Shown here piece after piece: positions 7,976-42,728 of a stretch of 64,000 nt of DNA. The notes beneath the pieces were generated by a model. The model was given only the letters and a program-made list of their open reading frames with translations, was not told the DNA's origin and made no database searches. The position numbers and the translations under genes are program-made. Location of the stretch: the NCBI GenBank assembly GCA_021772565.1, contig JAJFLR010000097.1, positions 1,558 through 65,557 of the forward strand. Reading direction: 5' to 3'. The stretch comes from Opitutales bacterium (GTDB taxonomy: Bacteria; Verrucomicrobiota; Verrucomicrobiia; Opitutales; JAJFLR01). How positions within the stretch are numbered: the stretch's first letter is position 1; the number at the start of each line of letters is the position of its first letter.

Positions 7976-7997
7976 TCCCCGCCGCTTGCGGCGGGGA
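7976..7997. terminator. Perfect GC-rich inverted repeat (terminator-like or IS200/605-type palindrome)
   Basis: tccccgccgc-tt-gcggcgggga followed by tctttattt on the + strand, between convergent genes. Confidence 0.5.
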
Positions 7998-8095: not shown

Positions 8096-8701
8096 TTATT
8101 CATCAGGGTATAAATCCCTTTTTACCAACTCACCTTTTTCCATCTCGACAATGGATTTAATTCTGCCGTTTGGGTACCAGGCTTTATTTATTCCATCTGG
8201 CTTACCATCGATAAAATGCATCTCTGTTGCCTTTTTCCCATTTTCGTGCCAACTGGTAAATGTTCCGGAGATTTCTCCCTCAATTATTTGAGCCTTTGAC
8301 TTCATCTGTCCATCGGTATACCATCGAATACGCCCTCCATGAGAGATGCCTTTTACAAAATGTTCTTCGACTTCCTTTTGCCCATCCTCATACCAGCCCA
8401 GAGATAAACCATGCGCCCGACCCTCTTTAATGGCGATAAGCACCTTCTGCTCACCACCCGGATAGTTTTCAACAAGATTGCCACTAAAAACCTCATCAGA
8501 GTCTTTTATAAATAAGGTACCATCCCTCAAATCGAGTTGCTCTCTGGTAAGTTCATTCGAAATTTCTACTGTAGCTTCAGTTTCAAATTCAGGTTGATAA
8601 TGTTGCCAGTAATACCAAATACCAACAGTGGAAATTAGCATTACAACAAGCAGCCACAGAAACAGGTTTTTAAATGGTTTTTTTAACTGCATTGTTAACA
8701 A
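8096..8701 (-). CDS. MORN-variant repeat protein (YwqK-like), single N-terminal TM
   Basis: Repeats GWYEDGQK, RWYTDGQMK, SWHENGKK, AWYPNGRIK. Confidence 0.85.
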   Translation of the reverse strand: MLTMQLKKPFKNLFLWLLVVMLISTVGIWYYWQHYQPEFETEATVEISNELTREQLDLRDGTLFIKDSDEVFSGNLVENYPGGEQKVLIAIKEGRAHGLSLGWYEDGQKEVEEHFVKGISHGGRIRWYTDGQMKSKAQIIEGEISGTFTSWHENGKKATEMHFIDGKPDGINKAWYPNGRIKSIVEMEKGELVKRDLYPDE

Positions 8702-8793
8702 GTAGCTCTTTACCTCATCTTGCGACGGTGTCTGTGGGAATCAAAAAATCATCAGTCAAAGTAAACCCGGATTTTGCACTAGGTAAACTTAAC

Positions 8794-9633
8794 TCATTTG
8801 ACATGCAGTTGGTAGAATTGGGGGCTTTTATCACTTTCATCAATTGATTCAGGTAACACTACGTAAATATCCTCATTATTCACATTAGGAGCAAGGTACA
8901 CAAAAAATGGGTTCGAGCCATCGGAACTGAGTGAAAAGCTCACATCTTTATAAGTGACAAGATCGTCTGATACTTTTAATGTATAAGTACGTCCCTCGAT
9001 CGCAAGAAATTGCAAACGGGCAAAAATCCCTACTGTTTCTATTATATCCAACCTGAAAGTCTCACTCTTCGTAAAGGCATAGGTGCCGGCGACATACTCC
9101 ACATAATTGCTAACGCCATCGCCATCGATATCACCTTCAGGACTAACATCGGCTAAAGTTTTAATTGCGTCATTTGGATTAAAATCAATCAAGTCTTTTT
9201 CCCATTGATCGGGTAGACCATCGCCATCGCTGTCGGCGCCCAGAGTCAGATCCAACCGTGTGCGGCCTCCCGGCTCGCCTATGGTATTATTTCCACCCAT
9301 AACTTCGAGCGGCACAAAAACATCATTACCAATGTTCACGCGCACCGTATAGGGCATAGTTGGACGCAATGCTGTTGGAACATAGAGAGTTTGGGTTATA
9401 CCCGCATCCATAGGAATTTTAAGCGAATAGTTTATTTCAGGCCCAATTGAAGAACTTATTGGCCCTGTGACAATATCTTTAGAATTACTGCTCAATGTAA
9501 TTGAAGCTGTAACAGTCAATGGAGTTCCTTTAGCATCACGTACGATTCCAAATACCTCATGATGAGGTGCTGGCGGAAATGCCGAGGCTGTTACGGTGAA
9601 TATAAATAAGACTATAAAGATTTGAATTTTCAT
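8794..9633 (-). CDS. Secreted protein with Asp-rich Ca-binding (DxDGDG) motifs and Verrucomicrobia-type C-terminal domain
   Basis: Signal peptide ending ASA; DSDGDGLPDQWE and DIDGDGVSNYVEYVAGT; C-terminal GRTYTLKVSDDL...FYQL; its ATG directly follows the upstream TAA. Confidence 0.8.
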   Translation of the reverse strand: MKIQIFIVLFIFTVTASAFPPAPHHEVFGIVRDAKGTPLTVTASITLSSNSKDIVTGPISSSIGPEINYSLKIPMDAGITQTLYVPTALRPTMPYTVRVNIGNDVFVPLEVMGGNNTIGEPGGRTRLDLTLGADSDGDGLPDQWEKDLIDFNPNDAIKTLADVSPEGDIDGDGVSNYVEYVAGTYAFTKSETFRLDIIETVGIFARLQFLAIEGRTYTLKVSDDLVTYKDVSFSLSSDGSNPFFVYLAPNVNNEDIYVVLPESIDESDKSPQFYQLHVK

Positions 9634-12600
9634 TTAATTTCCTGAGTATGAATAGGTTTCGAGGTAGAGTTCGATATCCTTCACCGATTCAATGAATATC
9701 TGCAAACCAACCTGCGGATTGCTCCTCAAGGTACTTCCCGGAATGACAATTTTCCAGCGACTGTTCCAAACCGATCGACCAATGAGACGGCTGTTTGTAA
9801 ATCCCGGTGCACTACTGAAAACAGTACCGCTTGGTACTGCTCGAAAAGCTTGATGTTTGCGAATAGCAAAGGCTTCCTCACTGAGTGAATCAGATGATAG
9901 AAATCCGGTATTTGTAGAAAAATCTGTATTGCCAATATTGAATGGTAATGGAATAGCCTGGTCATCGACACTCCAGCTACGCACAGTCGATACATCTCCC
10001 AATGGTGGTGAGCGCATCGAATCAACTCCTGTCGGAATCAGATAAATATGCGGCGTTGCACTGAGTGCATCTGGGTCCAGGAAGCCGAGATCCGGATCAG
10101 CGGGTGATGATGCACCAATTTCACTCAAGGTACCCCCAGTCGATGTCGGCGAATCCATGCCGACATAACCCTTAAATGCGATACCGGATGATCGAATTTT
10201 TGTGGCAAATGTACTAGGACTGAATCCGTGGTCGCCACCTGCCAGAGGCTCACCAAAAAAGTTGAAACCCTGAGCAATTGTCGTTTGGAATGGAATGACC
10301 AACCCAGGCACCGGTAGTCCGTCCTGATCAGCAATTTGCATACAGTAGCGGCGCACGTCAGGATCCTCAAGCACGTCACTCATACGGCTGGCTGCAAGTT
10401 TATCACTCCAATCCCCATCACCCGAAGCAGCCGGAATAATTCTGAAGTTTTCTCCACGTAATGAAAATTTAGTGCGATAACGATCCGGATTATTGAATCC
10501 GAGGCGTGTCTTTGCCACAGACCAGTCACCCTCCATTTGCGCCAGCACGCCAGAAAGCCCCGGGTCGCCCGTGTTTGAGGCAGTAAACTGAGGATTTCCA
10601 CTTTTATCAACTACACCAAGTGCACGACTTTGAACAATACTGTCAAAAAATGAAGCGGCTGCGCTACTGCCTGAAGTATGTAAAAGTCCCGTTTCATAAT
10701 CATAGGCGCGTGCTGCAAGGAAAGTGTAACGCGCTGCAAGATTGAAAAGCACACTGTATTTCTCAAGCGACTCATCACGAAATACGCGAAAAGCTAGGTC
10801 ACGAGTTCGATAGCCCTGAACGATAGCAGCCGCACGCTTGTTAAAGGTTTCACGTGCAGCCTGAACGGCAAACCCCCGTGCTTTAATTTCTTGAAAATTA
10901 CGCTGCGCCTGATCGTAAACACGCAATGCCTGATCCACGGCTGTTCGTAGTCCTCGAAAATCTGATAGCGCATCGTGTAAATCTTGAATAAGTTGTTTGC
11001 TCTGAGCATCCCAAAATGCTTCTTCCAGTTGTACTTCCAATAGTCGTTCTGCATCGACAATATTACTATCAATTTTCTCCAAGTCTGCTTCACTTGCAGA
11101 TGAAGCTGCCAGTAAAGCCGTTTTAATCCCAACACCTATTAACTTGGCTGCTCCACGACCTGGAGAAGTAGCGTCATTTGAAAATCCCAGAGTTGTGGGA
11201 AAAAATTCCGCAGCACCATCAGAAGCATCAATAGCAATTTCTGCTGCTATATCTGACGTGCGCTTAACTATAGAAAGCGCCAACTTTGAGTTTTCTATTT
11301 CTTTGATTTTATCATGAGCTGCTGACGTTAGTGACACTGCTTTTGTTCGTGCGGTTACCTCTGCATCATAGAGGTCAATTAAAGCGTTCATGTCATCTTT
11401 GAGATTTTCATAGTTGTCCATCGCCTGCCTGAGTCGTTGTCTCGCAGACAGAAGATCAGAAATTACACTCTGCATTTGTCCAGGATGGGCGCGTCGGCCA
11501 GTCCACGTTGCAGGTTTCACGACATCACCCTTGGCGTTGATAGTGAACATAACAGATTCTCCCAAGTTCAGTGTAGAGGAATTTGCATCAGCAAACTCTG
11601 GATCCAGAAATAATTCATACTCTCTGGATTCAAGAGTGGGATCAAAGAACAACTCCGGAGTCTCAACATAAGCAAAGTGCAGTAAATCAGGTCCAGTATA
11701 GCCCTGAGAATAGGTCTTGCCCGGACCTATATCATCGGGATAAGGCGTACCGTAGATCCCTATTAATTTGTTTTCAAAAGCGGTCAACTGAGATTCAATA
11801 GCAGCTCTATTTTCTGCAATACTGTTGTCCTGTTGCCGCAGAAATTCGGTTGAACTTTTTGCATTGTTAAACGCAAAAACCGCATTTTTAAGAGCACCTA
11901 CCGCTCTATCATAAACCTGTTCATAGTGCGTCTTGCCCGCATCGATTTCATTGGGTGAAATATCGAAACTGACCGCCCCTTTTGCAAGGCCTAACGGATT
12001 CAGTCGGGCGTCTGCATTATCAAGCGTAATCTGTATCAACTTGGCATCACCAACTACTTCGTCAAGTTCAGGTACTGTCGTTCGATCAACTTTTTCAATG
12101 CCTTCATTAACATTGTCTTCCTCAGGCAAAATTGAGTTGGCAGTCACCCAGTGGAAATAAGCTCCCTGGCCGGATCGACTAGCCCATTCATCTGTGCCCC
12201 ACCTGCGTGAAGTACCCGTTCTATCATTTGTCTGTCCATCACGTAAATGGGTCCAGCCAGCATTTTCATTCGCTGTAAATTGCTGTCTGTAGGTTAAATC
12301 GAGAACCTGATTCGCAGTTCGAGTAAGTGCTGCAGCTGCAGAGGCAAACTTACGCTCATCCTGATAATCAATTGATACCGGTTGTCCCAAGACAGAGACC
12401 GCTTCAACACGGGGTGTCCATGAAAAATGGTCGTTGCTTAACAAAGTGTAATAAACCTTCAATGCAGTGAGATAGTGACCATAGGCATCGCCATGCCCCT
12501 GAGGAAACTGTACCGTAGCATCAACAGCATCCGCTGCACCATCAACGTTGAGATCCTGTATATTATAGTTCAGCGAATAGATCGGTTCTCCTGAATTAAT

Positions 12601-15600
12601 TCCACCGGTAAAATTCCAGACAAGACGATTGTAGACAGGTGATACCACAACACCCGGCTGTAGATTATCATCTCGTCCGCGCAGTAGTGCTAGTTCTTCA
12701 TCGAGAACCGTGGCAAGTTGCCCTTTAAAAGCAAATAAGGCTGTATTAAATTCACCAAAGTCACCTCCCTCGGTGTCAAAGGCAATCGTTGGGTTGGATG
12801 CATCGGCAAATGCCTCATTACCCAGTAATTGGTAGAGGTCATTTAAATATCCGGCAGCGAGCAGCAGTGCGTCGTTGGCAGCCGGTACATTGAGTGGTGG
12901 GTTTCCACTGATGCTGAGGCTCTTACCTCTTCGTAAAACTGTTTCATAAATTTCTATCAGTCCAAAGTCGTCAATATTTTGGAGATTAAGTGCGATATCA
13001 CCCTCCCAGCGAGGCCCTGCTTGAGTGAGCAGAGAAACATCAGTATTAACATTATTGTTGAACAAATCTGTTACACGCTGTTCAAATGGATTGATACCAC
13101 CCAATACACGTTTGATCCAGCCCGGTGCCAATTGGGCAGGCAACCAACTCGACCAATTGCCAGCAGTGATAGCATTACCGCTGGTAGCAAATGCGGCGGC
13201 CGTTCCGGCTTTGGCTCGATAACGCATTGTGAAATAATTATCAGTCAATGTTTCTATAGTGGCACCTTCAATTGTATGAGTCGACTTGGCCACAACACCA
13301 TCGCCACTCTTGGCACCATCAGTGAGATCTTGCCAGCCTGAGAGGTCGACTGTTTCAATGCGGCCTTCCAGACGTAGATTAATTGTCGACTGGGAATTTA
13401 CATCGGATAGTGTATAAAGTTCAACAGTAACCGTATTGTCACCGGCGACAATTGCCTCAGGCATAATTCTAAAAACACGCTCTAAAGAATTTATATCACC
13501 GGGAGGTGTGGTAGCGACACTGTTTTCACGATTGGGAACATTCCAGACAGCTGCTTCTGTTCCATTAACATAAACAATAAGACCGTCATTATTTTCCAGG
13601 TCGATACTTAAAAATGCCTCAAATGGTAAAGGCAAAGCTTGTATAAATTCACGGCGAAGAACTGCATAGGGAATAGAAACTCCATTTTCTTCATTTCCAG
13701 CTCCATCATTAATGGTGATCTGCTGAGCGGGTAAATTGACCGTTTGCCATCCTTCTCCTGAATCATCAAAATCAACCGCCCTGAATTGAGCAATAATGGT
13801 ATCTGCAGGGTTATTGAAGAGTTGCCACGAACCATTTCCAACAATCGGTTGTGTCAATGCTGCAAAAGTGTAAATAACTGGCGGAAATCCCGCTACCGGT
13901 TGTGCTTTCAACCAGGCAAATTCAAAATCAGCCGGATCACCGGCATAATCTCCTGAATGTCGTAAATTCAGTTTCTCATCCAACGGATTTGCTGATTGAA
14001 CAATTTTTAATTCACCACGGTAAAGCGGTGCATCCACTTTGAATACGTGCAATGATACAGGCTCTGCAGGGGGAGTGAAGGCTGCACCATCTCCACTTGC
14101 TAATACAACATAACCGGTCCCTCCTCCAATAGCAGTCACGGCATAAGAATCGACTGCGGTATTTTCACTATTTACTTCAGCTAATTGTGTTGGACCAGCT
14201 TGAGTATTAAGTGCCGGATTTACAACAAACACACCTTTGCGTTTTGGATCTTCAATAAAAGTTTCCAGTGTTGTTGATAGTCCATCTATTGCAGTATGCC
14301 ATTGACTTTCCAATGAACCCCCTACTGCTACGAGTGCCTTACTATCAGTGACATCCTTTGCACTCATCACATTGAGCAGAAAGTAGTCTTCACCAAATGG
14401 AGCATCGATAAATTCACCAATGAAGACAAGGCTACCGAGTGGTCCGATATTGGGATCAAAAAAGAGTCGCTGACTAAGGTGCGGTGGCAGGTTGGGGAAA
14501 TATGTTTTGCCGAGAAAATCACTGGTCACCAATGAATCCGGTAATTTATCCAAACCACTTTCAGAAAGTGCAAAAGTCTTTTTCCTTGTAGGATCGAAGA
14601 GTCGCAAACTCGGTGTTTTTTCATCCACGTCACCCCCAATTGATTGTTGATAGAGCACACGCATGCTGGTTTGGCCACGCACAGCTGGCAGTCCACGTTT
14701 TGGTAGAGCCAGACTTTCAGAAATATTTAATATTGGTGGAGAACTCGGCCAAATTGGCGTAAATACCACATCAGCGGGAATGCCTGTTATCGGATCTCCA
14801 TTAAATCCACCTGCTGCATTCATTCCATTGGTAAAGGGTCTTAAATAAGGTACAATTGTGCCAACGTCCGGTTTTGTAAGTCCCGGAAAATCAAACTCTG
14901 CTTGCGTCTTGTAAAAATAGTGCATGACGAAGCTTTTTGCCTGATCGGTAACTGTACCGACATTGACTCCATCTGCATGGGGGCCACGATAAATCCATGT
15001 AGATCCTTTACGGTCCACGTAGGTGAACCTGTCATAATGTTCAATACCTTCAGAATTTGGGGCAAAATTTGCCGGCACGTCAGTCGGTGCACCGACTTCT
15101 CTGTTCCTTACAATATTATTCTCGTCCACCGGCAACTGAATGAGAGGCAGCGGTAAAGGTGCCTGTAATATCGCGCCAACAGTGCCTTCATAGTCGAAGG
15201 TATGTGCGGTATTTTCACGAACGACACGACGGATGACCATTGCCGGTAAATCATCTTCTGCAGTATAGTCCACCAACACATAGGGCTGAGACGATGTTGG
15301 GATATTTAAATCATCACGAAGCACATAGGCGACACCGCCGCTCATAAGCGCATGTTCTTCATTTGGATTATAACCGGGTAGTTGAGGATCTGCCTGTCGA
15401 TAAATGGATCCGGTAGCGGCAATACCTAATTCTCCTGACCCATCATTGCGGGCAAGAATAATTTCATCATTGAGATTTCCATCATCTGGATCGGTTACCG
15501 GCCATTGCAACTTGTATCTAATAACGAATCTCGGCCAGTGATTTACTGAAAAAGTGGACGATATAGGCTGGTTCATGGCATACCACCAAATAACAAGTTC

Positions 15601-17631
15601 ATCGTTACCGGGAAGTGCATTGACTGGTATAATTACGCCGTTGCCTGCCTGTTCAAACCCATGGGTAAAAGGATCAAAGTAAGCTCCCGGATTATAGGCG
15701 TTACCGAACTCCTCACGAATATGGCCGACCATAACGGACGAATTGGAAGGTGCATTAACACGTGTTCCAACGAGTGCAGTAAAGGGATTGTTCTCAAAAG
15801 AGACCCGAGCAGTTTCACTAATTGCTCCACCCTGCGTCTTCGTCACAATACCCGTAACAAGATTGATAGTGTAATCTGTGGTTATTGCATAGGAAGCTCC
15901 TGTGTCCGGATCAGCAAGCGATACATTGCTGATATTTGTGTAGCCGGTGCTGAATTGATCGTTTTCATCAAAAGTTCCCAATACAATCTGTGAGCCATCG
16001 AAGCTGCCGATTTCGGATTGGAGGATAGAGAAGACCCGCTCAAACCAGATTTCCTCATCGATCGTGTAGCGAATCAGTGCACGTCCTGTTGGGTCGGATG
16101 GACTGACAACCGTATAAAAAACATTTTGCGGGGTCAGTTTAGCGTGAGTTCTGGTAGGATCATCCTGATAGGCGATTACCGGATTATCCACAGAGTTAAG
16201 CTGTACGCCTGTTGCAATGGATGCATCACTACCCTCCGGTCGCGCATAGATCGAGTAAAATTCGCTCAACTCTTCAATGGTTGGAGTCGGCATAGTGGCC
16301 GCACGATACTCCTCCGGCCACTTGAAAATGTAGCCCACATATTCCTTAGGCCAAAATAGCTGTGCCACTCCCTCTTCCGTCCAGTATATAAGCACCTCAT
16401 TACTCTGCTGCTCAGGCAGTGGCCCGTCGCCATCCAGATCAAATGGGGAAGTTTCTCTAATAGCGTAAAGTGTGCGCTTTGTTCCACCCAGTGACAGATG
16501 CTCAAACAGATAAGGATCGCTTTGATCGCTAAGATTTTTGATCACTACAGCTTTCAAACTTTCATCGTTATCTGTAGGCGATACTTTCTCACCAATGGAA
16601 ACTTTAAGTTCCTCCGGCCGGGTCTCCTGAATGACATCAACAATTTCAAAACCCAAATGATCGCGGTAAATTCGGTCTGGCTCACGTAAATCACCGAGAA
16701 ATTCTACAAAGACACGACCTTCTATATTATAAGCGTGAATTGAGTTGTCCAAACTGTCGAACCAGAGAGTGCGTACTTCAGGAGGTAAGTTCAGTCCCGG
16801 GTTTTGCGGATCGTACGGATTTTCAGGATCAAAATCAAATGTATTAGATTCCGCAACTTCTTTAAGGAATAAGCTATTGTAAGCAATGTTTACATCGCCC
16901 ACACGTGACTCCGGAACTTGCACGGGCGGCCCGTTAAAATCACGTTCAGTCCAATAGATAGTTTTCGTCTGCTTTACCGGAGAGCCGGAAACATTGTAGG
17001 TCTGGGTAAAGCTGTTACCAGTTACCCGCTCCTTCCAGTCAATTGTGATGACACCCGGTTCCGTAGCAAAGACTCTCTCTGCGTGTGGACTCCAATAAAA
17101 TCTGCCTGTTGAAGAATTAGCGGGTTCCTTGAAATAAAATTCGGCCTCAGCAAATACTTTTGGGTCGAGGACGCTGCCATCCGGTTTACGATTTGGTCTT
17201 AGGATTTCTGATCCCATTGAAAATGAGACCAGTTGCACAACCATAGTGCGACTCATTTTAACACCGACAAGCTGGATAGTTTGGTTAGTCAGTTTGGTTT
17301 CTCCATCCAAATCAAGAGGTGTAAAGGAAGGGCTTAATATTGTCCCCGGTGTTCCGGCTACTTCACTAGTGCTGCCGGCAACAATTGTGCCATCAATTTT
17401 TATCCGTGTCGCTTGCCAGCCGCCAAATACCGTACCGCTTTCAAATTGATTGCCGGTACGAGCTGTTGGTCCTGGTGGCTCGGGGTCAGGAGGTACTCCA
17501 GCCTCGCTGAAGACATTGCGTACACTGTTCTCAATTTGAGGAAGTTGTGCAGAAAGATTGCCTGCAAGTGCCAGCATACCGGTTAAAATGAGGACTTTAG
17601 GCTTTAGTTTCATAGATGCAGAGTATTTCAA
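9634..17631 (-). CDS. Giant secreted protein (2665 aa) with putative Tc-toxin TcA-like C-terminal pore/translocation region
   Basis: Intact ORF with Sec signal peptide. Beta-rich N-terminal two-thirds, long helical region with hydrophobic hairpin (AAEFFPTTLGFS...AAKLIGVGIKTALLAA), YSVLFNLAARYTFLAARAYDYE and terminal WKIVIP...VKDIELYLETY. ORF is secure; the TcA similarity is a motif-level inference. Confidence 0.7.
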   Translation of the reverse strand: MKYSASMKLKPKVLILTGMLALAGNLSAQLPQIENSVRNVFSEAGVPPDPEPPGPTARTGNQFESGTVFGGWQATRIKIDGTIVAGSTSEVAGTPGTILSPSFTPLDLDGETKLTNQTIQLVGVKMSRTMVVQLVSFSMGSEILRPNRKPDGSVLDPKVFAEAEFYFKEPANSSTGRFYWSPHAERVFATEPGVITIDWKERVTGNSFTQTYNVSGSPVKQTKTIYWTERDFNGPPVQVPESRVGDVNIAYNSLFLKEVAESNTFDFDPENPYDPQNPGLNLPPEVRTLWFDSLDNSIHAYNIEGRVFVEFLGDLREPDRIYRDHLGFEIVDVIQETRPEELKVSIGEKVSPTDNDESLKAVVIKNLSDQSDPYLFEHLSLGGTKRTLYAIRETSPFDLDGDGPLPEQQSNEVLIYWTEEGVAQLFWPKEYVGYIFKWPEEYRAATMPTPTIEELSEFYSIYARPEGSDASIATGVQLNSVDNPVIAYQDDPTRTHAKLTPQNVFYTVVSPSDPTGRALIRYTIDEEIWFERVFSILQSEIGSFDGSQIVLGTFDENDQFSTGYTNISNVSLADPDTGASYAITTDYTINLVTGIVTKTQGGAISETARVSFENNPFTALVGTRVNAPSNSSVMVGHIREEFGNAYNPGAYFDPFTHGFEQAGNGVIIPVNALPGNDELVIWWYAMNQPISSTFSVNHWPRFVIRYKLQWPVTDPDDGNLNDEIILARNDGSGELGIAATGSIYRQADPQLPGYNPNEEHALMSGGVAYVLRDDLNIPTSSQPYVLVDYTAEDDLPAMVIRRVVRENTAHTFDYEGTVGAILQAPLPLPLIQLPVDENNIVRNREVGAPTDVPANFAPNSEGIEHYDRFTYVDRKGSTWIYRGPHADGVNVGTVTDQAKSFVMHYFYKTQAEFDFPGLTKPDVGTIVPYLRPFTNGMNAAGGFNGDPITGIPADVVFTPIWPSSPPILNISESLALPKRGLPAVRGQTSMRVLYQQSIGGDVDEKTPSLRLFDPTRKKTFALSESGLDKLPDSLVTSDFLGKTYFPNLPPHLSQRLFFDPNIGPLGSLVFIGEFIDAPFGEDYFLLNVMSAKDVTDSKALVAVGGSLESQWHTAIDGLSTTLETFIEDPKRKGVFVVNPALNTQAGPTQLAEVNSENTAVDSYAVTAIGGGTGYVVLASGDGAAFTPPAEPVSLHVFKVDAPLYRGELKIVQSANPLDEKLNLRHSGDYAGDPADFEFAWLKAQPVAGFPPVIYTFAALTQPIVGNGSWQLFNNPADTIIAQFRAVDFDDSGEGWQTVNLPAQQITINDGAGNEENGVSIPYAVLRREFIQALPLPFEAFLSIDLENNDGLIVYVNGTEAAVWNVPNRENSVATTPPGDINSLERVFRIMPEAIVAGDNTVTVELYTLSDVNSQSTINLRLEGRIETVDLSGWQDLTDGAKSGDGVVAKSTHTIEGATIETLTDNYFTMRYRAKAGTAAAFATSGNAITAGNWSSWLPAQLAPGWIKRVLGGINPFEQRVTDLFNNNVNTDVSLLTQAGPRWEGDIALNLQNIDDFGLIEIYETVLRRGKSLSISGNPPLNVPAANDALLLAAGYLNDLYQLLGNEAFADASNPTIAFDTEGGDFGEFNTALFAFKGQLATVLDEELALLRGRDDNLQPGVVVSPVYNRLVWNFTGGINSGEPIYSLNYNIQDLNVDGAADAVDATVQFPQGHGDAYGHYLTALKVYYTLLSNDHFSWTPRVEAVSVLGQPVSIDYQDERKFASAAAALTRTANQVLDLTYRQQFTANENAGWTHLRDGQTNDRTGTSRRWGTDEWASRSGQGAYFHWVTANSILPEEDNVNEGIEKVDRTTVPELDEVVGDAKLIQITLDNADARLNPLGLAKGAVSFDISPNEIDAGKTHYEQVYDRAVGALKNAVFAFNNAKSSTEFLRQQDNSIAENRAAIESQLTAFENKLIGIYGTPYPDDIGPGKTYSQGYTGPDLLHFAYVETPELFFDPTLESREYELFLDPEFADANSSTLNLGESVMFTINAKGDVVKPATWTGRRAHPGQMQSVISDLLSARQRLRQAMDNYENLKDDMNALIDLYDAEVTARTKAVSLTSAAHDKIKEIENSKLALSIVKRTSDIAAEIAIDASDGAAEFFPTTLGFSNDATSPGRGAAKLIGVGIKTALLAASSASEADLEKIDSNIVDAERLLEVQLEEAFWDAQSKQLIQDLHDALSDFRGLRTAVDQALRVYDQAQRNFQEIKARGFAVQAARETFNKRAAAIVQGYRTRDLAFRVFRDESLEKYSVLFNLAARYTFLAARAYDYETGLLHTSGSSAAASFFDSIVQSRALGVVDKSGNPQFTASNTGDPGLSGVLAQMEGDWSVAKTRLGFNNPDRYRTKFSLRGENFRIIPAASGDGDWSDKLAASRMSDVLEDPDVRRYCMQIADQDGLPVPGLVIPFQTTIAQGFNFFGEPLAGGDHGFSPSTFATKIRSSGIAFKGYVGMDSPTSTGGTLSEIGASSPADPDLGFLDPDALSATPHIYLIPTGVDSMRSPPLGDVSTVRSWSVDDQAIPLPFNIGNTDFSTNTGFLSSDSLSEEAFAIRKHQAFRAVPSGTVFSSAPGFTNSRLIGRSVWNSRWKIVIPGSTLRSNPQVGLQIFIESVKDIELYLETYSYSGN

Positions 17632-17654
17632 GTAGAGATTAATAGTAGCCTTTT

Positions 17655-19166
17655 TTATTTTGCAGATGCATCAAGCAATGTATCCAACCTGCTTTCAAGT
17701 TGCGTCATTCGTGATTTCAATTCCGCATTCTCATTCTGCAACGTTTTTATTTGCTCTAAATTTTCAATAGACTTGGTATTTAATTCTTTAATTGCATTAA
17801 CGCTTGCCCAATGAATAGGATCAACTTTCATACTTAAATATACACCGTCAACAGCACTCTCAAGTGTCCCATTAACCGCTTCCGGAATAACATCTAGTAC
17901 ATCCTGCGCAATAAATCCGATCTCCTCTCCATCAGAAGTCAGCCCCAAATCATTATCATCCTTGTAACGGAATTTAACAGGTTGCAGCTGTAGGATAGCA
18001 TCAAGGCCTCTTTCATAAACCCGAATATCCTGCTTCAACCGTGAATCCGAGAATGTTTGCCAAGATGACCCACCCGAGCTCTTTCCAGCGTTGCCAGTCA
18101 CCGTAAATTTAGTATCATTGGAGCCTCCCAAGCCAGATACTGGCCAAAAAGATGCAATTCGTGCATTTGTAATCGTATTTTTAATTTGTAGCACTTGATT
18201 AGAATTCCCATTTACACTGAAACTCCCCTGTGGTCCAGATACTAGAATACTAGATAAATTTAGTTTGTTAGCAGTCACCGCACTATTAGCGATTTCACTA
18301 TTACCAACAGCGTTTGCCGCAATCTCACTTGCTCCAACGGCATTGGCTGCAATATCAGAGGCCGTTATTGAATTATCAGCAATATCAACACTCCCTATTG
18401 TGCCATTACGAATATCACTTCCTTGAACAGAATTATCAACAATTTCACTTGTGCCGACAGCATTGGCTGCAATTTCGCTCGCACCTACCGCATTGGCAGC
18501 AATTTCAGCTGCTGCCACAGCATTGGTTGCAATATCAGAGGCTGTTATTGAATTATTTATAATTTCGCTTGAGCCAACAGCATTATCTGCGATTTGGGCA
18601 GAACCCACCGCATTGCCGGCAATCTTCCCTACACCGACCGCTCCATCTGCAATTGTATCTGAAAACTTTGCATGTTCCGCAACAACAGCAAAGGGCGATG
18701 CCAGCAATGCGAGCCGTGGTGAAATCTCACCGGGTGTTGCAGGTGGATTTAATACAGTTAATCCTAAAAAACGCTCCTTTCCATTAAATGCACTGAGTAA
18801 TTTATTTTGCGCAACTGAACCCGTTAGTGGAAGGGGGTCACCATCGGCAGTTGCTATGACTTCTCCTTCACCCAAGCGGACAGAGAAAAGGCCTGTTCCT
18901 GTCACAGTTACAATCTGTTTTTCGGCCCAGATCAAATTACCCCCACTCTGGCTATCCCAAATACGAAAGCGGATTTCGAAGTTGGCAGCAGTACCTGTAG
19001 TGCCAGGACCACCTGTACCCGTTATTGGACCGCCATTGCTGTTGAGTAACTGTCCCTGATAATCAATAAGGGCCGGAGCTCCTGCAACCTGAGCGTTGAG
19101 GATTGCACCGAAGTGTGCATAGAAGAATAAAGTCAGGATGACTGCTATTTTATTTTTCGTTTTCAT
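17655..19166 (-). CDS. Secreted tail-fibre-like trimeric adhesin with C-terminal peptidase S74 intramolecular chaperone
   Basis: Signal peptide; N-domain IDYQGQL...FRIWDSQSGGNLIWAE...GLFSVRLG; 10-aa repeats; SDSRLKQDI, IGFIAQDV..VIPEAV, NAIKEL plus coiled coil. Confidence 0.88.
   Translation of the reverse strand: MKTKNKIAVILTLFFYAHFGAILNAQVAGAPALIDYQGQLLNSNGGPITGTGGPGTTGTAANFEIRFRIWDSQSGGNLIWAEKQIVTVTGTGLFSVRLGEGEVIATADGDPLPLTGSVAQNKLLSAFNGKERFLGLTVLNPPATPGEISPRLALLASPFAVVAEHAKFSDTIADGAVGVGKIAGNAVGSAQIADNAVGSSEIINNSITASDIATNAVAAAEIAANAVGASEIAANAVGTSEIVDNSVQGSDIRNGTIGSVDIADNSITASDIAANAVGASEIAANAVGNSEIANSAVTANKLNLSSILVSGPQGSFSVNGNSNQVLQIKNTITNARIASFWPVSGLGGSNDTKFTVTGNAGKSSGGSSWQTFSDSRLKQDIRVYERGLDAILQLQPVKFRYKDDNDLGLTSDGEEIGFIAQDVLDVIPEAVNGTLESAVDGVYLSMKVDPIHWASVNAIKELNTKSIENLEQIKTLQNENAELKSRMTQLESRLDTLLDASAK
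18271..18653 (-). repeat. Intragenic 30-bp/10-aa tandem repeat (IAxNAVGxxE), about 13 units
   Basis: IADGAVGVGK IAGNAVGSAQ IADNAVGSSE ... IAANAVGASE ... IANSAVTANK in the translation. Confidence 0.9.
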
Positions 19167-19221
19167 AATTTCGGATTCTGATTTTGGTGATTCAATTGTT
19201 AAATTTTTTAATTACTAGAAG

Positions 19222-20982
19222 TTATTCAATTAAAGTAGCTATATCGGATACACGATAGAGAATAAAGGTGCCCTTTACTTTGATCGGTTGAGCACGCAGA
19301 CCAGTGATTGTCTCCTCATAATCGCCACCAAGTATGGTGCTGCCCCAGTTGAGGTCTGAAATACCGAGCTCATCCGGGTCGGCCTCCCATATCAACTTGA
19401 TGTCGCGATTTACAGTATAAGATTCATCACCGGCAAGTAATGGTGTTGTGCTAAACTGTAGATCTTTATTATCATGGTCAGGGTGATAGGTATGAACAAA
19501 GGGGTTTGTTTGCGCATCATGTGCCAGAACTGAACTGAGTGTGACTTCACCTGTCAAACCCAGGTCACCCGTTGCGACTACTTTCTCGTCGAGTGGAAAA
19601 CTTGCACTGGACAGACGACGCGCATTAGCCAGTTTCTCCGGATCAAGCTCGGACTCTTCTGCGGCAATGATGGTATTTCCAGAGGTGTTCTCGCCAATAT
19701 AAACCTGCTGCTGTAAATTTACTGTGCCATTATCTGAGCGATGGAGAATTATTCTCAATGGAAAGGCGGAAGGTGCGTCGGCATCTGCATCGGTCGTGAC
19801 ATCGACAGTCGCCGTACCATCACCCACAGGAGCCGGAGCTGCAGTTATTTGATCAACCTGGTTGACTATTGCTGTGCCAACCCAAAGGCCGGAAAGTGAT
19901 GTTTTAACAGCTCGCACCGGTAGATCGACACGTGAAATTTTTTCAGAATCAGTGACTTGAAGAATGCTCTGAAAAACATCATCGGGATTACCAGTCATAG
20001 TTGAACGGTCGACCGCGATAACGATCTCGACCTCTTCTCCTGCTTCGAGATCGAAAGTTTCAGCAGAATCAAAATCTTCAAATTCGAAATTGCCGGTGGT
20101 TGGATCCAGTTCACCGCGTATTTGCAGAGGGACGGGTCCAGCATTTGCATCCTCTCCAGTAGGTGGCACAGCCGATACTGCAGGAGTCACTGTAGCAGTG
20201 ACCTGACTGTTTGTAAGATTTTTTATTTTAAGTGTGGTAACAGCGCCTGTATCGCGAAAATTGAGTCCTGCGTTACCTGTCGTCACACGCAACGGACCGT
20301 AGAAGTCGGTAAATTGCGAACTTTGTATCCAGTAGGCCTGGCCACGTGAAACGGCTTTTAGACGCGGTGCAGTTACCCGCACGGGATTCGATTCAAGTGC
20401 TCCGCCGTCATAGAAAAATATATCGGCTGCCGTGCTCAAGGTGTTGCTGAAAGAGAGGAAGCGCTCGAAGTTGCGGTCGGTTACACTATCCGGTGTCTGC
20501 ATAGGAAAGCCGAAAAAATTGAGTCCCGAGCTGGACCAGGAATAATTCGGTGGTGTCGGTTTTCCAGTTAAATTTAATGTAATATCGGGTGATGTATCAG
20601 CAACTTTTATAAGATAGGTACCATTTGCCACAAAATTGCTTATAGTAGATTCTGTAGGCTTCCCACGTTTCCAGATCAACCATTGATTATCAGACTGTAC
20701 CGGTGTAGCCGGTGATTGAGTGAACTGTGTGCTCGATGCAGTTGTATTCCAGTACCAGACCTCTTCAATAGCGGTTTCGCCCGACAATAGATCATCGATG
20801 GACCCGTGTGAAACATCGAGTGAAAGCCAAATTGCATTCCAGCCCGCTTTCAGAGGATAGTCTTCGGAAACCCATTGCGCCAAACCTCGGCTTGTAGCGC
20901 TAAACACCACAACTATGGCAAATATATATCTCAAAAAAATGAAAAAACTGCTGTTCCTGGAATAGCTGATGTGTGTTCCCAT
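19222..20982 (-). CDS. Secreted beta-rich hypothetical protein, first gene of the fibre/TcA-like operon
   Basis: Signal peptide ending GLA-Q; PLKAGWNAIW motif; C-terminal NPFVHTYHPDHDN. Confidence 0.8.
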   Translation of the reverse strand: MGTHISYSRNSSFFIFLRYIFAIVVVFSATSRGLAQWVSEDYPLKAGWNAIWLSLDVSHGSIDDLLSGETAIEEVWYWNTTASSTQFTQSPATPVQSDNQWLIWKRGKPTESTISNFVANGTYLIKVADTSPDITLNLTGKPTPPNYSWSSSGLNFFGFPMQTPDSVTDRNFERFLSFSNTLSTAADIFFYDGGALESNPVRVTAPRLKAVSRGQAYWIQSSQFTDFYGPLRVTTGNAGLNFRDTGAVTTLKIKNLTNSQVTATVTPAVSAVPPTGEDANAGPVPLQIRGELDPTTGNFEFEDFDSAETFDLEAGEEVEIVIAVDRSTMTGNPDDVFQSILQVTDSEKISRVDLPVRAVKTSLSGLWVGTAIVNQVDQITAAPAPVGDGTATVDVTTDADADAPSAFPLRIILHRSDNGTVNLQQQVYIGENTSGNTIIAAEESELDPEKLANARRLSSASFPLDEKVVATGDLGLTGEVTLSSVLAHDAQTNPFVHTYHPDHDNKDLQFSTTPLLAGDESYTVNRDIKLIWEADPDELGISDLNWGSTILGGDYEETITGLRAQPIKVKGTFILYRVSDIATLIE

Positions 20983-21396
20983 AAAATTTGTTAATTATGC
21001 TATATTCTATAATGTATATGCATAACAGAACTGATTATACTAATAAAATAACGAAGAATAGATTATAGATAATATTCAAAATATCATTTAGCAACTTTTT
21101 TTTAACTTTTTTTTTATGTGGTTATAATTGTGAGTAATAAAGCCCTTTATAGCACTTAATATAAATAATTAGTAGATGGTATGACATTATAAATTACTTC
21201 CATAGCCCGAAGGATTAATCTAAACTAGCCCAAAGTTAAAGGAATAAATATTGATTTAATCTACAAAATGGTTGCGTTGCATTTTCAGTTGGGAAATCAC
21301 AGATTATAGCATCTGCCATAAATCATTTCGTATATTATAAAATTCAGAACAAAAAGCCTGAATGATAATACAGTTATCAAAAATTGAAAATTAGAT

Positions 21397-21524
21397 AGAT
21401 TGCCGCGACCTGCCTCAGCAGGTCTCGCAATGACAAACGCACTAACAATTGTCATCGCGAGGAACAACGTGAGCCGACTCCGCCATAGTAGCCTAGAGGC
21501 TACGACGGCTGGACGAAGCGATCC
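21397..21524. repeat. Nested palindromic repeat elements
   Basis: agattgccgcgacctg...caggtctcgcaatgaca and inverted partner tgtcatcgcgagg...gaagcgatcc, with internal gtagcctagaggctac hairpin. Confidence 0.65.
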
Positions 21525-21585
21525 ATGACTATTTAATTCGAGTAGAACATTAGCCTAAGTCCATTATAAACGAAAACACTTATGA

Positions 21586-21770
21586 TAATCGCTATTGATG
21601 GTACTAACTCGCCCTTTCAGGACTTGTTAACTTATAAACTTTTTTATCCAAGGGCTTGCACACCCTGGGCTGAATTAGAGCAGCCTTTCAGGCATGCAAA
21701 ATACCTCATTGATTACTATTCCAGTAACCCAATTCCCCACCCCATTTGCAAATTTATCAGCATTGGATTG
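21586..21770. repeat. Dispersed palindromic (REP-like) repeat, copy 2
   Basis: Direct, diverged copy of 7691..7870 (ggtacta..tcgccctttcagg.cttg..aacttataa; gcctttcaggcat.caaaatacct.attgatta). Confidence 0.8.
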
Positions 21771-21792
21771 TTGATATTGAATTTATTCAAGA

Positions 21793-32523: not shown

Positions 32524-33897
32524 TTACAACGTTAATTTTATACTGCGTCTCAAATATGTTGGTACGTCAAGATCAACGTCTTTATATAAATTTCTTTCTT
32601 TATCATCTTCAAATAATCCCCGTTGCTCACTTTCTGAAAAAAGAAACTCAATTTGGTTATCAACTTTTTTAATTTTGTTTTTTCTTTTATATGTTCTTTT
32701 TGATTTTCCTTTAGATTTAGACTTTATGGGAAAAACTATTTTTTTGCTGTTAGTGTTTTCATTGTAAACAATAGTTTTAGATTTATTTGAATTAACTGGT
32801 CCTTCAACATTGTTTGATCCAAAAATGAACAATTCAATCTTATCATTCATCCCTTCTTCAATGTATGCACCATATATAATTTCAATATCTTTAGAATATT
32901 TTTCAAAAATTGCATCCATAACTTCTTTTACTTCATTCATCCCAATATTTGGGCCACCAGTAATATTAACGATCAATCGATCAATACAATTACAAGTTTC
33001 TGTCGTATGTAGTAGTGGACATAAAAAAAGATTTTCGATAGCTTTTTTAATATAATTTTCTCCTGCACCCTGACCAATTCCAAACAGTGTCTTTCCACTT
33101 TTATTTTTAAATATATTTCTAAGATCATTAAATTCCACATTTTTAATCCCATTTTTAAAAATCATAGAATGAATGGCCTTTATACCCGATGCGATCCAAT
33201 TGTCTGCTAGCAAGAATGAGTTAGTGACGCTGGAAGATTCATTTGATTGCTGGAATAAAATATCACCTGGAATAGGTATTACAGCATGACAATTACTTCT
33301 TAATTCAGCTAGACTTTCTCTTGCTTGTTGTTGTCTTCTTATTCCTTCAAATGAATATGGAATTATGGCAAAGCAAATAACAAGTGCGTTATGTTCAACC
33401 GCTTTTTTGGCGATGATTGGTGTTGCTCCACTTCCTGTGCCACCACCTAAACCTGATATTAGAAATAATAAGTCAGTGTTTGCGACCATTTGATTTATTG
33501 AATCTATATCTGATTCAACTGCATTTCTTGCCACTTCAATATCGCCACCCGCATCGAGCCCTTTAGTAATTGTTTTGCCAATTAATAAACACTCGTCAGC
33601 CTTGGAATTTTCAATTGCTCTAAAGTCTGTATTGACTGCCGATAACGTTATCCCGTCTAATTTTTCTGCAGCGAATTGATTGATTATATTGTTACCAGCA
33701 TTCCCAATCCCAATAATTTTAATTTTTAATTTCGGAGAAATTTCAGATTCATTATTTATTTCTAAATCTTTAAGATCTTCATCTACTTCTGGAATTTTTA
33801 TTTCACAGTTTAGATTTAGTAGCTCAGATTCGATATTTTTGTCTGGATTTACAGACTCATTGTTATCATCAGGAATATTTGAATTATTGGCTATCAT
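32524..33897 (-). CDS. ftsZ: Cell division protein FtsZ (divergent)
   Basis: AVNTD, GLGGGTGSGATP, FEGIRR, C-terminal DLDVPTYLRR; last gene of dcw cluster. Confidence 0.92.
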   Translation of the reverse strand: MIANNSNIPDDNNESVNPDKNIESELLNLNCEIKIPEVDEDLKDLEINNESEISPKLKIKIIGIGNAGNNIINQFAAEKLDGITLSAVNTDFRAIENSKADECLLIGKTITKGLDAGGDIEVARNAVESDIDSINQMVANTDLLFLISGLGGGTGSGATPIIAKKAVEHNALVICFAIIPYSFEGIRRQQQARESLAELRSNCHAVIPIPGDILFQQSNESSSVTNSFLLADNWIASGIKAIHSMIFKNGIKNVEFNDLRNIFKNKSGKTLFGIGQGAGENYIKKAIENLFLCPLLHTTETCNCIDRLIVNITGGPNIGMNEVKEVMDAIFEKYSKDIEIIYGAYIEEGMNDKIELFIFGSNNVEGPVNSNKSKTIVYNENTNSKKIVFPIKSKSKGKSKRTYKRKNKIKKVDNQIEFLFSESEQRGLFEDDKERNLYKDVDLDVPTYLRRSIKLTL

Positions 33898-33900
33898 GAT

Positions 33901-35115
33901 TTATTTGGAACTGGAAAAGAGCCTGGAAAGAATTTTGAATCTACTTTTTTTCTTTTTACTGACAATGTCGTTTTTTTGATATTTTAGAGCAAATAACAAA
34001 ATTCCCAAAACAGTACTGTACTCTGGGTGCCGTAATTCTTTTTGAACCCAATTTGGAATTTCACCCAGACTTACATCCATTTCAAAAACATTTTTAGCGA
34101 TATTAGTAATACCTGCTTGTCTTGATGTGCCTCCAGTTAATGTGATTTTAGTAACGGTTTCATTTGGTTTAAATGAGGTGCCGAGTTCATTTTTAATTAT
34201 GTTAAATAGCTCATCCAATCTTGCTTCAATTATTTGATCAATGGCATTTACCTGAACTGGTCTATCTCCAATTGATCTGTCTCCGTAAAGCCATAAATGA
34301 CGATTTTCTAAATTTTCGTCATCAGCTAATTTATTATATTGGCACTTAATTTCTTCGGCACGTTGCGTGTTTATTCTTAATGCCATACCCAAGTCACTGG
34401 TTATGTGATTGCCGCCCACTTTAATCACACCCGTTTTTGCTATTTTGCCATTTAAGTATAACACGTAATCAGTTATTCCGGCACCGATGTCTATAACTAA
34501 TGAACCATTAATTTTTTCCAGTTCAGTAACCAATGTGCACCCTGAAGCGAGTGATGAAAGTATTACATCATCTACTGTATAGTGCATCCAGTTTAATATA
34601 TGTATCTGATCTGCCAATTTTTTTTCATCACTTGTTATGTGCAAGTATGATGCTTCGAGCTGTTCCCCTTCTTTCCCCAGTGGGAATTCAATATTTTTAC
34701 CATCCAGTTTATAGCCATTTAAAATATGATGAATATATACTCTGTCAGGTCGAAGCTCCTTTACTCTTGCACTTTCAGTAGCACGTTTGACATCTTCCTC
34801 AACAATAATATTGTCAGGAGAACTAACGCCAACAATACCTTTGTTGTAAAATCCTCTTATGTGTCCGCCTGTTAGTGACATGTATAATTTTTCGAAAGAT
34901 GTTCCTGCAGATTTTTCAACTGTATTTATAGCTGCATAAACACAATTACTTGTGGCTTCCATATCAACAATATCACCTTTATTAACACCATGTGTAGAGG
35001 CTTCTCCCATACCAAGTATATTGAGATCAGTACCGTTACTTATTTCAGCAATAAGTACAATAATTTTAGAAGTCCCAATATCCAATGCGCCGATAATTTT
35101 ATTTTGATTCTTCAT
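33901..35115 (-). CDS. ftsA: Cell division protein FtsA
   Basis: LDIGTSKI, IDIGAGITD, GGNHITSDL, LTGGTS. Confidence 0.95.
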   Translation of the reverse strand: MKNQNKIIGALDIGTSKIIVLIAEISNGTDLNILGMGEASTHGVNKGDIVDMEATSNCVYAAINTVEKSAGTSFEKLYMSLTGGHIRGFYNKGIVGVSSPDNIIVEEDVKRATESARVKELRPDRVYIHHILNGYKLDGKNIEFPLGKEGEQLEASYLHITSDEKKLADQIHILNWMHYTVDDVILSSLASGCTLVTELEKINGSLVIDIGAGITDYVLYLNGKIAKTGVIKVGGNHITSDLGMALRINTQRAEEIKCQYNKLADDENLENRHLWLYGDRSIGDRPVQVNAIDQIIEARLDELFNIIKNELGTSFKPNETVTKITLTGGTSRQAGITNIAKNVFEMDVSLGEIPNWVQKELRHPEYSTVLGILLFALKYQKNDIVSKKKKSRFKILSRLFSSSK

Positions 35116-35127
35116 ATAATTTTTTTC

Positions 35128-42697: not shown

Positions 42698-42728
42698 ATC
42701 AATCTTTCCTCCGTTATTTTATGTTAAA

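Follow-up and report, generated by a model that had tools for sequence, protein, structure and literature searches.

What does a bacterium build from a giant protein of 2665 amino acids, a phage-type fibre and three smaller proteins, when the five genes lie side by side on one strand? The question is raised by positions 8096-20982 of a 64,000-nucleotide (nt) stretch of contig JAJFLR010000097.1 from an Opitutales bacterium (phylum Verrucomicrobiota). The whole of this stretch is hereafter called the window and supplies the coordinates used below, and its five open reading frames (ORFs), all on the minus strand, are called the cassette. The initial annotation of the window had proposed a Sec-exported, fibre-targeted injector resembling TcA, the A subunit of Tc toxins. 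Our best reading retains much of this proposal: the cassette would encode a Sec-exported particle, lacking the B and C components of Tc toxins, that is built around a distant TcA relative and targeted by lectin modules and the fibre. The C-terminal module of the giant protein, the co-conservation of the genes and the nature of the fibre support the proposal, while the TcA shell, the TcA sequence family and a core of five genes were not recovered. In order of transcription, the genes are:

19222..20982, minus strand: p586, the first gene; 586 amino acids, exported, family without a name (ORF)
17655..19166, minus strand: fibre; 503 amino acids, with signal peptide, N-terminal domain, repeat shaft and Peptidase_S74 domain (ORF, Pfam)
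9634..17631, minus strand: giant; 2665 amino acids from a TTG start, with a signal-peptide-like N-terminus (ORF)
8794..9633, minus strand: p279; 279 amino acids, exported, with Ca-binding loops (ORF, TSP3_bac)
8096..8701, minus strand: MORN_2-repeat protein (hereafter MORN); 201 amino acids, with one N-terminal transmembrane (TM) segment (ORF, Pfam)

The giant and its TcA-like C-terminal module

The AF2 model of the last 1188 residues of the giant (1478-2665; pLDDT 67.2, pTM 0.61) contains, in this order, a helical domain, a 59-residue helix, a small beta insert, a 90-residue helix, a 14-residue loop, a 159-residue helix and an alpha/beta domain. The helical domain spans approximately residues 1500-1880 and lies between the protein's beta-rich N-terminal portion and the TcA-like C-terminal module, whose main elements are:

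10690..11478, minus strand: long alpha-helical hairpin, giant residues 2052-2314 (DSSP on the model)
11167-11208, minus strand: tip loop of the hairpin, 14 residues, giant residues 2142-2155
9637..10665, minus strand: C-terminal alpha/beta domain, giant residues 2323-2665, with a fold like the TcB-binding (funnel) domain

In the hairpin, the descending helix of 90 residues (model residues 575-664) and the ascending helix of 159 residues (model residues 679-837) meet at a tip that is Gly/Ala-rich, hydrophobic and conserved across relatives, and in this model the hairpin could serve as a membrane-inserting channel. The C-terminal domain is both the best-modelled part of the giant (pLDDT mostly 75-93) and its most conserved part (mean column identity 65%).

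Structural similarity of the giant to TcA was looked for and found by two structure-comparison methods, with support from an embedding search and a profile comparison: (i) Foldseek of the C-terminal model against the PDB gave 21 matches at E<=0.001, and the 20 listed are all TcA chains from five genera (TcdA1, XptA1/2, TcdA4, YenTc A and TcaA-TcaB; E 5.3e-8 to 6e-6, best probability 1.00, 620-1092 columns), followed by a further Tc chain at E 5e-3 and by the first non-Tc protein at E 0.19; (ii) the VIA aligner placed model residues 401-1185 on TcdA1 2007-2516, that is, the channel plus the TcB-binding domain, with Z 9.8-11.3, and aligned the isolated TcB-binding domain 6l7i_A (TcdA1 2327-2516) with model residues 904-1185 at Z 8.5 and a root-mean-square deviation (rmsd) of 3.9 A over 147 of 179 residues; (iii) a language-model feature search (Atlas) gave TcA_TcB_BD clusters at 0.90 and 0.80, which we take as a lead only; and (iv) hhalign matched the profile of the giant's C-terminal part to a profile of natural TcA proteins, for which the Sep locus of Serratia entomophila pADAP was fetched and 25 TcA C-terminal relatives were aligned. 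The last match (probability 68.6%, E 4.6e-5, 78 columns) covers giant residues 2276-2372, where in both families the end of the ascending channel helix runs into the start of the funnel domain, and the controls against the same TcA profile reached 0.12% for p586 and 0.05% for the middle region of the giant.

The coiled coils RipA and Smc also score Z~10 with the VIA aligner, so the hairpin alone is not diagnostic, and the specific signal is the colinear arrangement of hairpin and C-terminal domain together with the separation achieved by Foldseek. We regard the C-terminal module as probably a true, if very distant, relative of TcA. One side observation concerns the same module. In the viral structure library its sole significant match is the BFVD entry A0A481Z1I0 (Mimivirus LCMiAC02, 1032 amino acids; Foldseek E 2.6e-7, probability 1.00, 958 columns), followed by EsV-1-171 at E 0.017; this TcA-like or giant-like protein from a giant-virus bin may be a real relative or an artefact of binning.

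The rest of the giant looks different. Its N-terminal ~1500 residues are beta-rich, and in a second model (residues 600-1799; pLDDT 79.2, pTM 0.74) beta domains extend up to residue ~1500. One of them has a recognisable fold:

13351..13869, minus strand: galactose-binding-like jelly roll, giant residues 1255-1427 (VIA on the middle model)

The jelly roll resembles the sugar-binding domains found at the N-terminus of GH2 enzymes, with Z 11-12 and an rmsd of ~3-4 A over ~135 residues, and the other beta domains of the middle model resemble immunoglobulin (Ig)/fibronectin sandwiches (Z~8). Alignability was compared over 59 loci in which the giant is complete: it is lowest for residues 1-100 (39%) and 1201-1500 (43-69%) and reaches at least 81% in all remaining bins of 100 residues. 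The jelly roll falls within the second variable stretch; judged from the model, it may be a receptor- or glycan-binding module. The N-terminal halves of relatives carry DUF5122 propellers, DUF642, Laminin_G_3, PA14, He_PIG and Sortilin-Vps10 domains, and also a sub-threshold legume-lectin match. No TcA chain is among the matches listed for the middle model (600-1799) against the PDB, either by Foldseek or in two VIA searches. Set against what part of Leidreiter et al. describes, those conserved 'core' features of TcA that can be tested are present and the shell is not recognisable. The TcA-like giant of the initial annotation is thereby narrowed: on the models, the likeness is seen in the last ~790-890 residues, which comprise the channel hairpin and the funnel domain and on which Foldseek, VIA and hhalign agree, whereas no TcA shell or TcA-type family was detected in the N-terminal ~1500 residues, which the middle model covers from residue 600, and no sequence-family match was significant.

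Conservation of the cassette and the nature of its partners

Genome contigs scanned with the C-terminal 1188 residues of the giant yielded 276 related loci, of which the best 80 underlie all synteny counts; gene-presence counts further use only loci with enough flank (>4.2 kilobases (kb) upstream for p586; >1.7 kb downstream for p279). The order p586, fibre, giant, p279, MORN on one strand is constant across related loci. Both p586 and the fibre are present in 40/41 loci, p279 in 60/60 and MORN in 42/60, and among the 34 loci with both flanks four genes occur together in 33 and all five in 25. The co-conservation of the genes is thus confirmed, with a core of four genes rather than five, since MORN is the one that is often missing. 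Genes neighbouring the cassette in the window are found again in 0-1 of the 80 loci, which identifies the cassette itself as the unit, and the gene arrangement is far beyond chance.

The family of the giant is large. At E<=1e-3 it comprises 1462 proteins among 7997 candidates scored, and a profile of the C-terminal domain finds 1011 clusters (50% identity) at the same threshold and 630 at E<=1e-30, with the domain always at the extreme C-terminus of proteins of 2,100-4,900 amino acids (near-full-length proteins among 150 listed). Relatives with source names come from Verrucomicrobiales, Akkermansiaceae, Haloferula and strain DG1235, the recorded carriers including Verrucomicrobiae bacterium DG1235 and Haloferula chungangensis, and none has a functional name: all are called 'hypothetical protein' except three rows with an automatic repeat label. 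By the profile of the C-terminal part, 56 of 401 genomes sampled from the phylum (42 of 185 genera) contain the family, as do 5 of 41 genomes of the same order, Opitutales, one of these being only marginal. A search of the literature found no description of this family or of Tc-like systems in Verrucomicrobia, and the word Verrucomicrobia is absent from the main text of Song et al. 2021 (PMC7861908). DNA of the window was found only in four DNA runs of one biofilm-metagenome study, one of which is possibly the window's own source, and no RNA run is listed as containing window sequence.

Some labels point outside the phylum: five contigs with a cassette (L020, L027, L034, L044 and L070) bear metagenome-assembled genome (MAG) titles naming Bifidobacterium, Bifidobacteriaceae, Enterobacteriaceae or Kapaibacterium, and one Atlas neighbour cluster of the giant (1133 amino acids) was listed mostly as Pseudomonadota. 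These labels probably reflect mislabelling or misbinning.

Several copies of the cassette per genome are common, and several occur in one Limisphaerales MAG. The genome studied here holds a second cassette (contig C25, 58767-74460) with a giant of 2564 amino acids (~42% identity over the C-terminal 1188 residues), a 427-amino-acid fibre, a p279-like gene and, in the position of MORN, a secreted protein of 454 amino acids. Its p586 homologue is broken up into ORFs 73249-74460 and 70835-73258, which overlap in different frames; the latter has a long additional stretch at its C-terminus. Far from both cassettes, contig C47 carries an isolated ORF of 272 amino acids (80028-80681) that is 50% identical to giant residues 2198-2419, a region that covers the ascending helix together with the first part of the C-terminal domain; the ORF may be a gene fragment or a pseudogene.

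Additional genes accompany some loci. In 26 of the 80, the cassette is followed on its own strand by one more large secreted protein, which has FG-GAP_2, DUF5122 propeller and HYDIN/ASH-type Ig domains (e.g. L086:15200-20935); in 15 of the 80, an additional fibre-like gene lies immediately upstream of p586; and two (L009:15795-18155 and L010:9257-11551) have a second S74 fibre after MORN. The window cassette has neither an extra giant nor extra fibre genes.

The partner proteins were characterised by the following elements:

18657-19076, minus strand: N-terminal domain of the fibre, residues 31-170 (conservation in relatives)
17874-18050, minus strand: Peptidase_S74 intramolecular-chaperone domain, fibre residues 373-431 (Pfam 8.1e-17)
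19471-19494, minus strand: H..HPDHD motif of p586, residues 497-504 (alignment of 43 relatives)
9094-9234, minus strand: two DxDGDG-type Ca-binding loops of p279, approximately residues 134-180, between beta-rich halves

The fibre had been annotated as an S74 tail-fibre adhesin, and its S74 and tail-fibre character is confirmed. Its S74 domain matches PF13884 with 61.7 bits against a cut-off of 22, and it hits 26 PHROGs families (best 1.3e-24), of which 16 of the 25 listed are tail-fibre or tail-spike families. The further suggestion that it is swappable is also supported: residues 31-170, which belong to no named family, align in 97% of 59 loci, the distal parts align in only 12-29%, and the tips of 45 cassette fibres include 24 S74, 6 Collar, 4 Gp10_C and 1 H_lectin domains. 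Phage fibres are designed in this way, with tips that can be exchanged on a constant N-terminal domain, and the constancy of this domain implies a constant docking partner. A complex prediction for p586 (36-586) with a trimer of the fibre N-terminal domain (28-172) scored 0.01 against a mark of 0.32 and, made without controls, is evidence neither way.

For p586 itself, Pfam gave no match, its 43 relatives gave only two stray single-member matches, no PDB sequence matched, and its Atlas neighbours are only unnamed Verrucomicrobiota clusters. All 43 aligned relatives share many tryptophans and an invariant His/Asp-rich motif (H497, H500, P501, D502, H503 and D504), which may be a metal-binding or catalytic site. 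The Ca-binding character assigned to p279 at the outset is consistent with its TSP3_bac match in Pfam (8e-6) and with a profile that also matches EF-hand Ca loops (calmodulin, E 7e-4); the mature N-terminus of this putative Ca-binding protein is conserved.

The 201-amino-acid protein, first described as a MORN/YwqK membrane protein, does have MORN_2 repeats (Pfam 3.6e-13, 48.6 bits, above cut-off) and a TM anchor. Its naming after YwqK was not confirmed, because NCBIfam gave no YwqK-type model at E<=0.1. Positive charges that precede the anchor suggest that the repeat domain is periplasmic. In the part of PMC7970981 consulted, a 'YwqK domain' is named only in a figure legend. As general background, proteins of the MORN_2/YwqK type can serve as antitoxins or immunity proteins.

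Signal peptides, attributed to the first four genes by the initial annotation, were read from the sequences and, across relatives, by a hydrophobic-window heuristic rather than a dedicated predictor. Signal-like N-termini were found by this heuristic in 38 of 43 p586 relatives, 44 of 45 fibres, 57 of 64 p279 relatives and 39 of 57 giants, and an N-terminal TM-like segment in all 30 MORN relatives, with internal control chunks scoring signal-like in 0-5% of cases. Sec export of the four proteins is therefore backed to the extent that such a heuristic allows, from the giant (39/57) to the fibre (44/45).

Several features complete the description of the locus:

20983..21792, minus strand: intergenic region of 810 nt, 5' of p586 (gap between ORFs)
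7976..7997, strand undefined: GC-rich hairpin, 9 pairs, 8 of them G-C (consensus scan)

The five genes are co-oriented, as first annotated, with intergenic gaps of 55, 23, 0 and 92 nt in cassette order, and the abutment noted between giant and p279 is exact, the ATG of p279 directly following the giant's stop codon. The giant probably starts at the ATG at 17613 rather than at TTG, which gives 2659 amino acids, the length of the identical database protein P0006. The 810-nt region 5' of p586 would be the place for an operon promoter, and the hairpin, which lies between the end of the MORN gene and a convergent gene of 426 amino acids, is a possible shared terminator; promoter-like and terminator-like sites found in the window by the consensus scan did not exceed the shuffled expectation. 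Elsewhere in the window, 15 tightly packed minus-strand ORFs (32524-49925; 301-766 amino acids, many with overlapping stops and starts) look like a large biosynthetic or envelope operon.

The cassette is flanked by ordinary genes (FAD oxidoreductase, MscS and CDP-alcohol phosphatidyltransferase), with no tRNA within 30 kb and no integrase beside the window copy. Only the fibre matched PHROGs, apart from a weak match of unknown function in the N-terminal half of the giant (2e-4), and genes for sheath, tube, baseplate, capsid, terminase or integrase were found neither in the cassette nor recurrently beside the loci. An NCBIfam tail-tube match in the giant has 18.1 bits, far below the cut-off of 60; tblastn with the giant's C-terminus had no match among 50,697 phage and 72,556 plasmid records; and phage tape-measure proteins appear in the viral fold library only at E>=0.007 against the C-terminal model. 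Both cassettes are rich in guanine plus cytosine (GC): 45.0% in the window (8096-20982) and 43.3% in C25 (60607-74349) vs 35.8% for the genome, in which only 0.75% of 799 windows of 12 kb reach 44%. The GC excess may stem from horizontal transfer out of Verrucomicrobiota with a higher GC content, or else these proteins may impose a constraint on composition. A defence-system reading was rejected, PADLOC giving no match.

A proposed targeted particle and its rival explanations

The whole reading, in which the cassette makes a targeted pore or translocator that acts on other cells, has in our judgement about an even chance of being correct. In this scheme, (i) all components would be exported by Sec or anchored in the membrane through their signal-like or TM N-termini; (ii) the giant would oligomerise into a TcA-like channel and funnel, as a pentamer by analogy with the bottle-shaped homopentamer of TcA, to which a stretched linker and a trefoil knot also belong; (iii) its lectin modules and the trimeric fibre, docked through its constant N-terminal domain, would bind glycans on the target surface; (iv) the hairpin bundle would be driven into the target membrane; and (v) the outcome, in the absence of a cocoon, would be either pore formation itself or a conduit for some cargo. 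The proteins p586 and p279 are candidates for a cap, an adaptor or the cargo, and the MORN protein, membrane-anchored and probably periplasmic, may shield the producer or act as its chaperone. The system would most likely be used to antagonise other microbes or grazers. Docking of the fibre on the particle and a toxic function of the system are both inferences.

Several observations weigh against this reading. The first group concerns cargo and release. TcB and TcC had been annotated as missing from the locus, and their absence also holds for the organism's own genome (95.3% complete), where TcA_TcB_BD and SpvB gave nothing at E<=1 and TcdB_toxin_midN reached at best E 0.155, below cut-off (the RHS-repeat family was not searched separately), and for the 401 sampled genomes of the phylum, where TcA_TcB_BD was found in 0/401, in a search in which no positive control rang. 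Without TcB and TcC there is no known cargo. In a diderm, moreover, a Sec signal delivers a protein only to the periplasm, and no outer-membrane crossing route or lysis cassette is linked to the locus; lysis, secretion or RHS-type genes do not recur beside the 80 loci, where the FG-GAP/DUF5122/Ig protein and extra fibres are the sole recurrent extras.

The second group concerns the kinship with TcA. Pfam gave no match for the giant and hence no Tc family, VRP1, ABC_toxin_N and Neuraminidase being absent, while the positive control SepA shows all three together with TcA_TcB_BD at 3.6e-51. The giant had no phmmer match among PDB sequences. Against the PDB, neither the profile of 46 C-terminal sequences (best match a designed helical repeat at 0.07) nor that of the last 343 residues found a TcA at E<=10, and with Pfam at E<=10 none of the 46 C-terminal domains (0/46) matched PF18276 (TcA_TcB_BD) or another Tc family. 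The hhalign probability of 68.6% lies below the usual 90-95% confidence, and against the single SepA sequence it is 6.3%, at the same place. The Foldseek TM-scores do not exceed 0.19 and the rmsd is high, as expected where long helices and domain angles differ; model confidence is middling (pLDDT 67.2, with the hairpin tip at 44-57); and unrelated coiled coils reach similar Z in VIA (RipA 10.9, Smc 10.1).

The first group of observations could be accommodated by a self-directed envelope device, which we consider possible though doubtful. In that explanation the Sec-exported giant would assemble in the periplasm, and its hairpin bundle would enter the outer membrane of the producer itself. Acting there as an anchor or a conduit, it would display the lectin modules together with the fibres and might also export p586 and p279; the device would serve adhesion to polysaccharide particles, algae or cells and would not be a toxin. 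Sec export and the missing release route would both be accounted for in this way, given that all components have signal-like N-termini and that no secretion, lysis or cargo genes are linked, whereas the Sep locus follows holin and lysozyme genes. The variable parts are modules of carbohydrate-binding type, 26 of 80 loci have a surface-type giant with FG-GAP, DUF5122 and Ig domains after the cassette, and the restriction of the window's DNA to biofilm-metagenome runs is compatible with this explanation, although as weak evidence. Yet the TcA channels described in passages of PMC6795518 insert into foreign membranes from outside; the funnel-like domain is the most conserved part of the giant, which fits docking or translocation better than a plain anchor; and the frequent membrane-anchored MORN partner would fit protection against a dangerous product.

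The second group of observations raises the possibility that the likeness to TcA is convergent or artefactual, the giant being a large exported protein of the adhesin or surface type, in which a coiled-coil stalk is joined to a C-terminal domain that is unrelated, and its TcA matches stemming from generic long helices and a model of modest confidence. The lack of a significant sequence match to any Tc family, the pLDDT of 67 with low TM-scores and high rmsd, the Z~10 of coiled coils and the hhalign probability below 90-95% are all in line with this. Against it, Foldseek separates TcA (E 5e-8 to 6e-6) from other helical proteins (E>=0.19), the C-terminal domain on its own matches the TcB-binding domain (Z 8.5, rmsd 3.9 A, 147/179), the hairpin and then the domain stand at the very C-terminus of a protein of ~2600 amino acids, as in TcA, and the embedding search and the hhalign match at the junction, with clean controls, agree on TcA. 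We hold convergence to be unlikely.

There is also a bolder possibility. The Tc 'syringe' would have a large unrecognised sister lineage without a cocoon, in which a periplasmic oligomer fires its channel through the producer's own outer membrane, making a new outer-membrane translocation or display system for fibres, lectin modules and perhaps p586 and p279. We rate this as slightly less likely still; in a milder form, the giant family would be the cargo-less ancestor that gave rise to Tc toxins loaded with a cocoon. Finally, we consider most improbable a prophage remnant, a tailocin or a particle like an extracellular contractile injection system (eCIS), or an island carried by a plasmid, in which the fibre would be a tail fibre: the fibre is phage-like and the two GC-rich outlier cassettes are compatible with horizontal acquisition, but PHROGs matches are essentially limited to the fibre, no structural phage or integrase genes lie in or recur beside the cassette, and the tblastn, tape-measure, flank, tRNA and PADLOC results given above all stand against it.

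Significance and comparison with known systems

Tc toxins are a textbook protein-injection machine that is known almost only from Proteobacteria and Firmicutes, and to our knowledge they have always been described as an A+B+C system released by lysis. A TcA-type translocation module now appears, as a probable distant relative, in another phylum, on a new scaffold, in a new gene context and with a new export mode. If the particle reading is true, the range and evolutionary history of Tc-like machines are widened, and the cassette is likely to be a major factor of cell-cell interaction or antagonism in abundant environmental bacteria, whose giant 'hypothetical proteins' have so far lacked an explanation. 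It also raises the questions of which role an A subunit can have when there is no cocoon and of how a megadalton particle leaves a diderm after Sec export. We do not call the cassette a Tc toxin, because it fails both the sequence-family membership and the A+B+C definition.

Among known systems, the MORN_2/YwqK immunity proteins share with the MORN protein their MORN_2 repeats and the position of a small protein at the end of a putative toxin operon. They differ in that the protein studied here has an N-terminal membrane anchor and no YwqK match, that the cassette contains no cognate enzymatic toxin domain and that MORN is absent from 18 of 60 loci.

Phage S74 fibres and spikes resemble the cassette fibre in the S74 domain, in the PHROGs tail-fibre matches and in the combination of a constant N-terminus with exchangeable tips (S74, Collar and Gp10_C). 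By contrast, the cassette fibre is chromosomal, has a signal peptide and stands in a non-phage cassette beside a TcA-like giant. The chimeric fibre proteins of Bdellovibrio, described in PMC10769870, show that fibres of this type can also help a bacterium to recognise cells.

The closest precedent for accessories on a TcA particle is of the YenTc type, in which, according to PMC12705794 and PMC6486591, the particle incorporates separately encoded, carbohydrate-directed accessories, namely chitinases. By analogy, the fibre and perhaps p586 may have such an accessory role here. The accessories in question would be a phage-type fibre and two proteins without known fold instead of chitinases, and YenTc has canonical B and C components.

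With Tc systems in general the differences are considerable: (i) the giant lacks the VRP1, ABC_toxin_N, Neuraminidase and TcA_TcB_BD sequence families; (ii) its N-terminal ~1500 residues are beta-rich and a helical shell is not recognisable; (iii) its C-terminal domain has ~340 vs 190 residues and its hairpin is longer; (iv) the cassette proteins have signal peptides, and no TcB or TcC was found in the locus, the genome or the 401 sampled genomes; (v) no lysis cassette is linked here, whereas SepA follows holin and lysozyme genes and YenTc is released by lysis that depends on a type 10 secretion system (T10SS), as part of PMC10847048 reports; and (vi) the cassette occurs in Verrucomicrobiota with p586, fibre, p279 and MORN as partners, whereas 96.4% of Tc loci belong to Proteobacteria and 3.2% to Firmicutes in the figures taken from Song et al. 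2021. The likeness to the TcA subunits (TcdA1, XptA1/2, TcdA4, SepA, YenTc A and TcaA-TcaB) lies in the similar size of ~2400-2700 amino acids and in a helical hairpin of great length, hydrophobic at its tip, that is followed by a funnel-type domain, as indicated by the fold match with weak profile support. It lies also in the overall logic. Passages of PMC6795518 describe TcA as having a conserved channel, linker and TcB-binding domain with variable receptor-binding domains, and the giant likewise appears to combine a conserved translocation core with variable beta-sheet receptor-binding parts.

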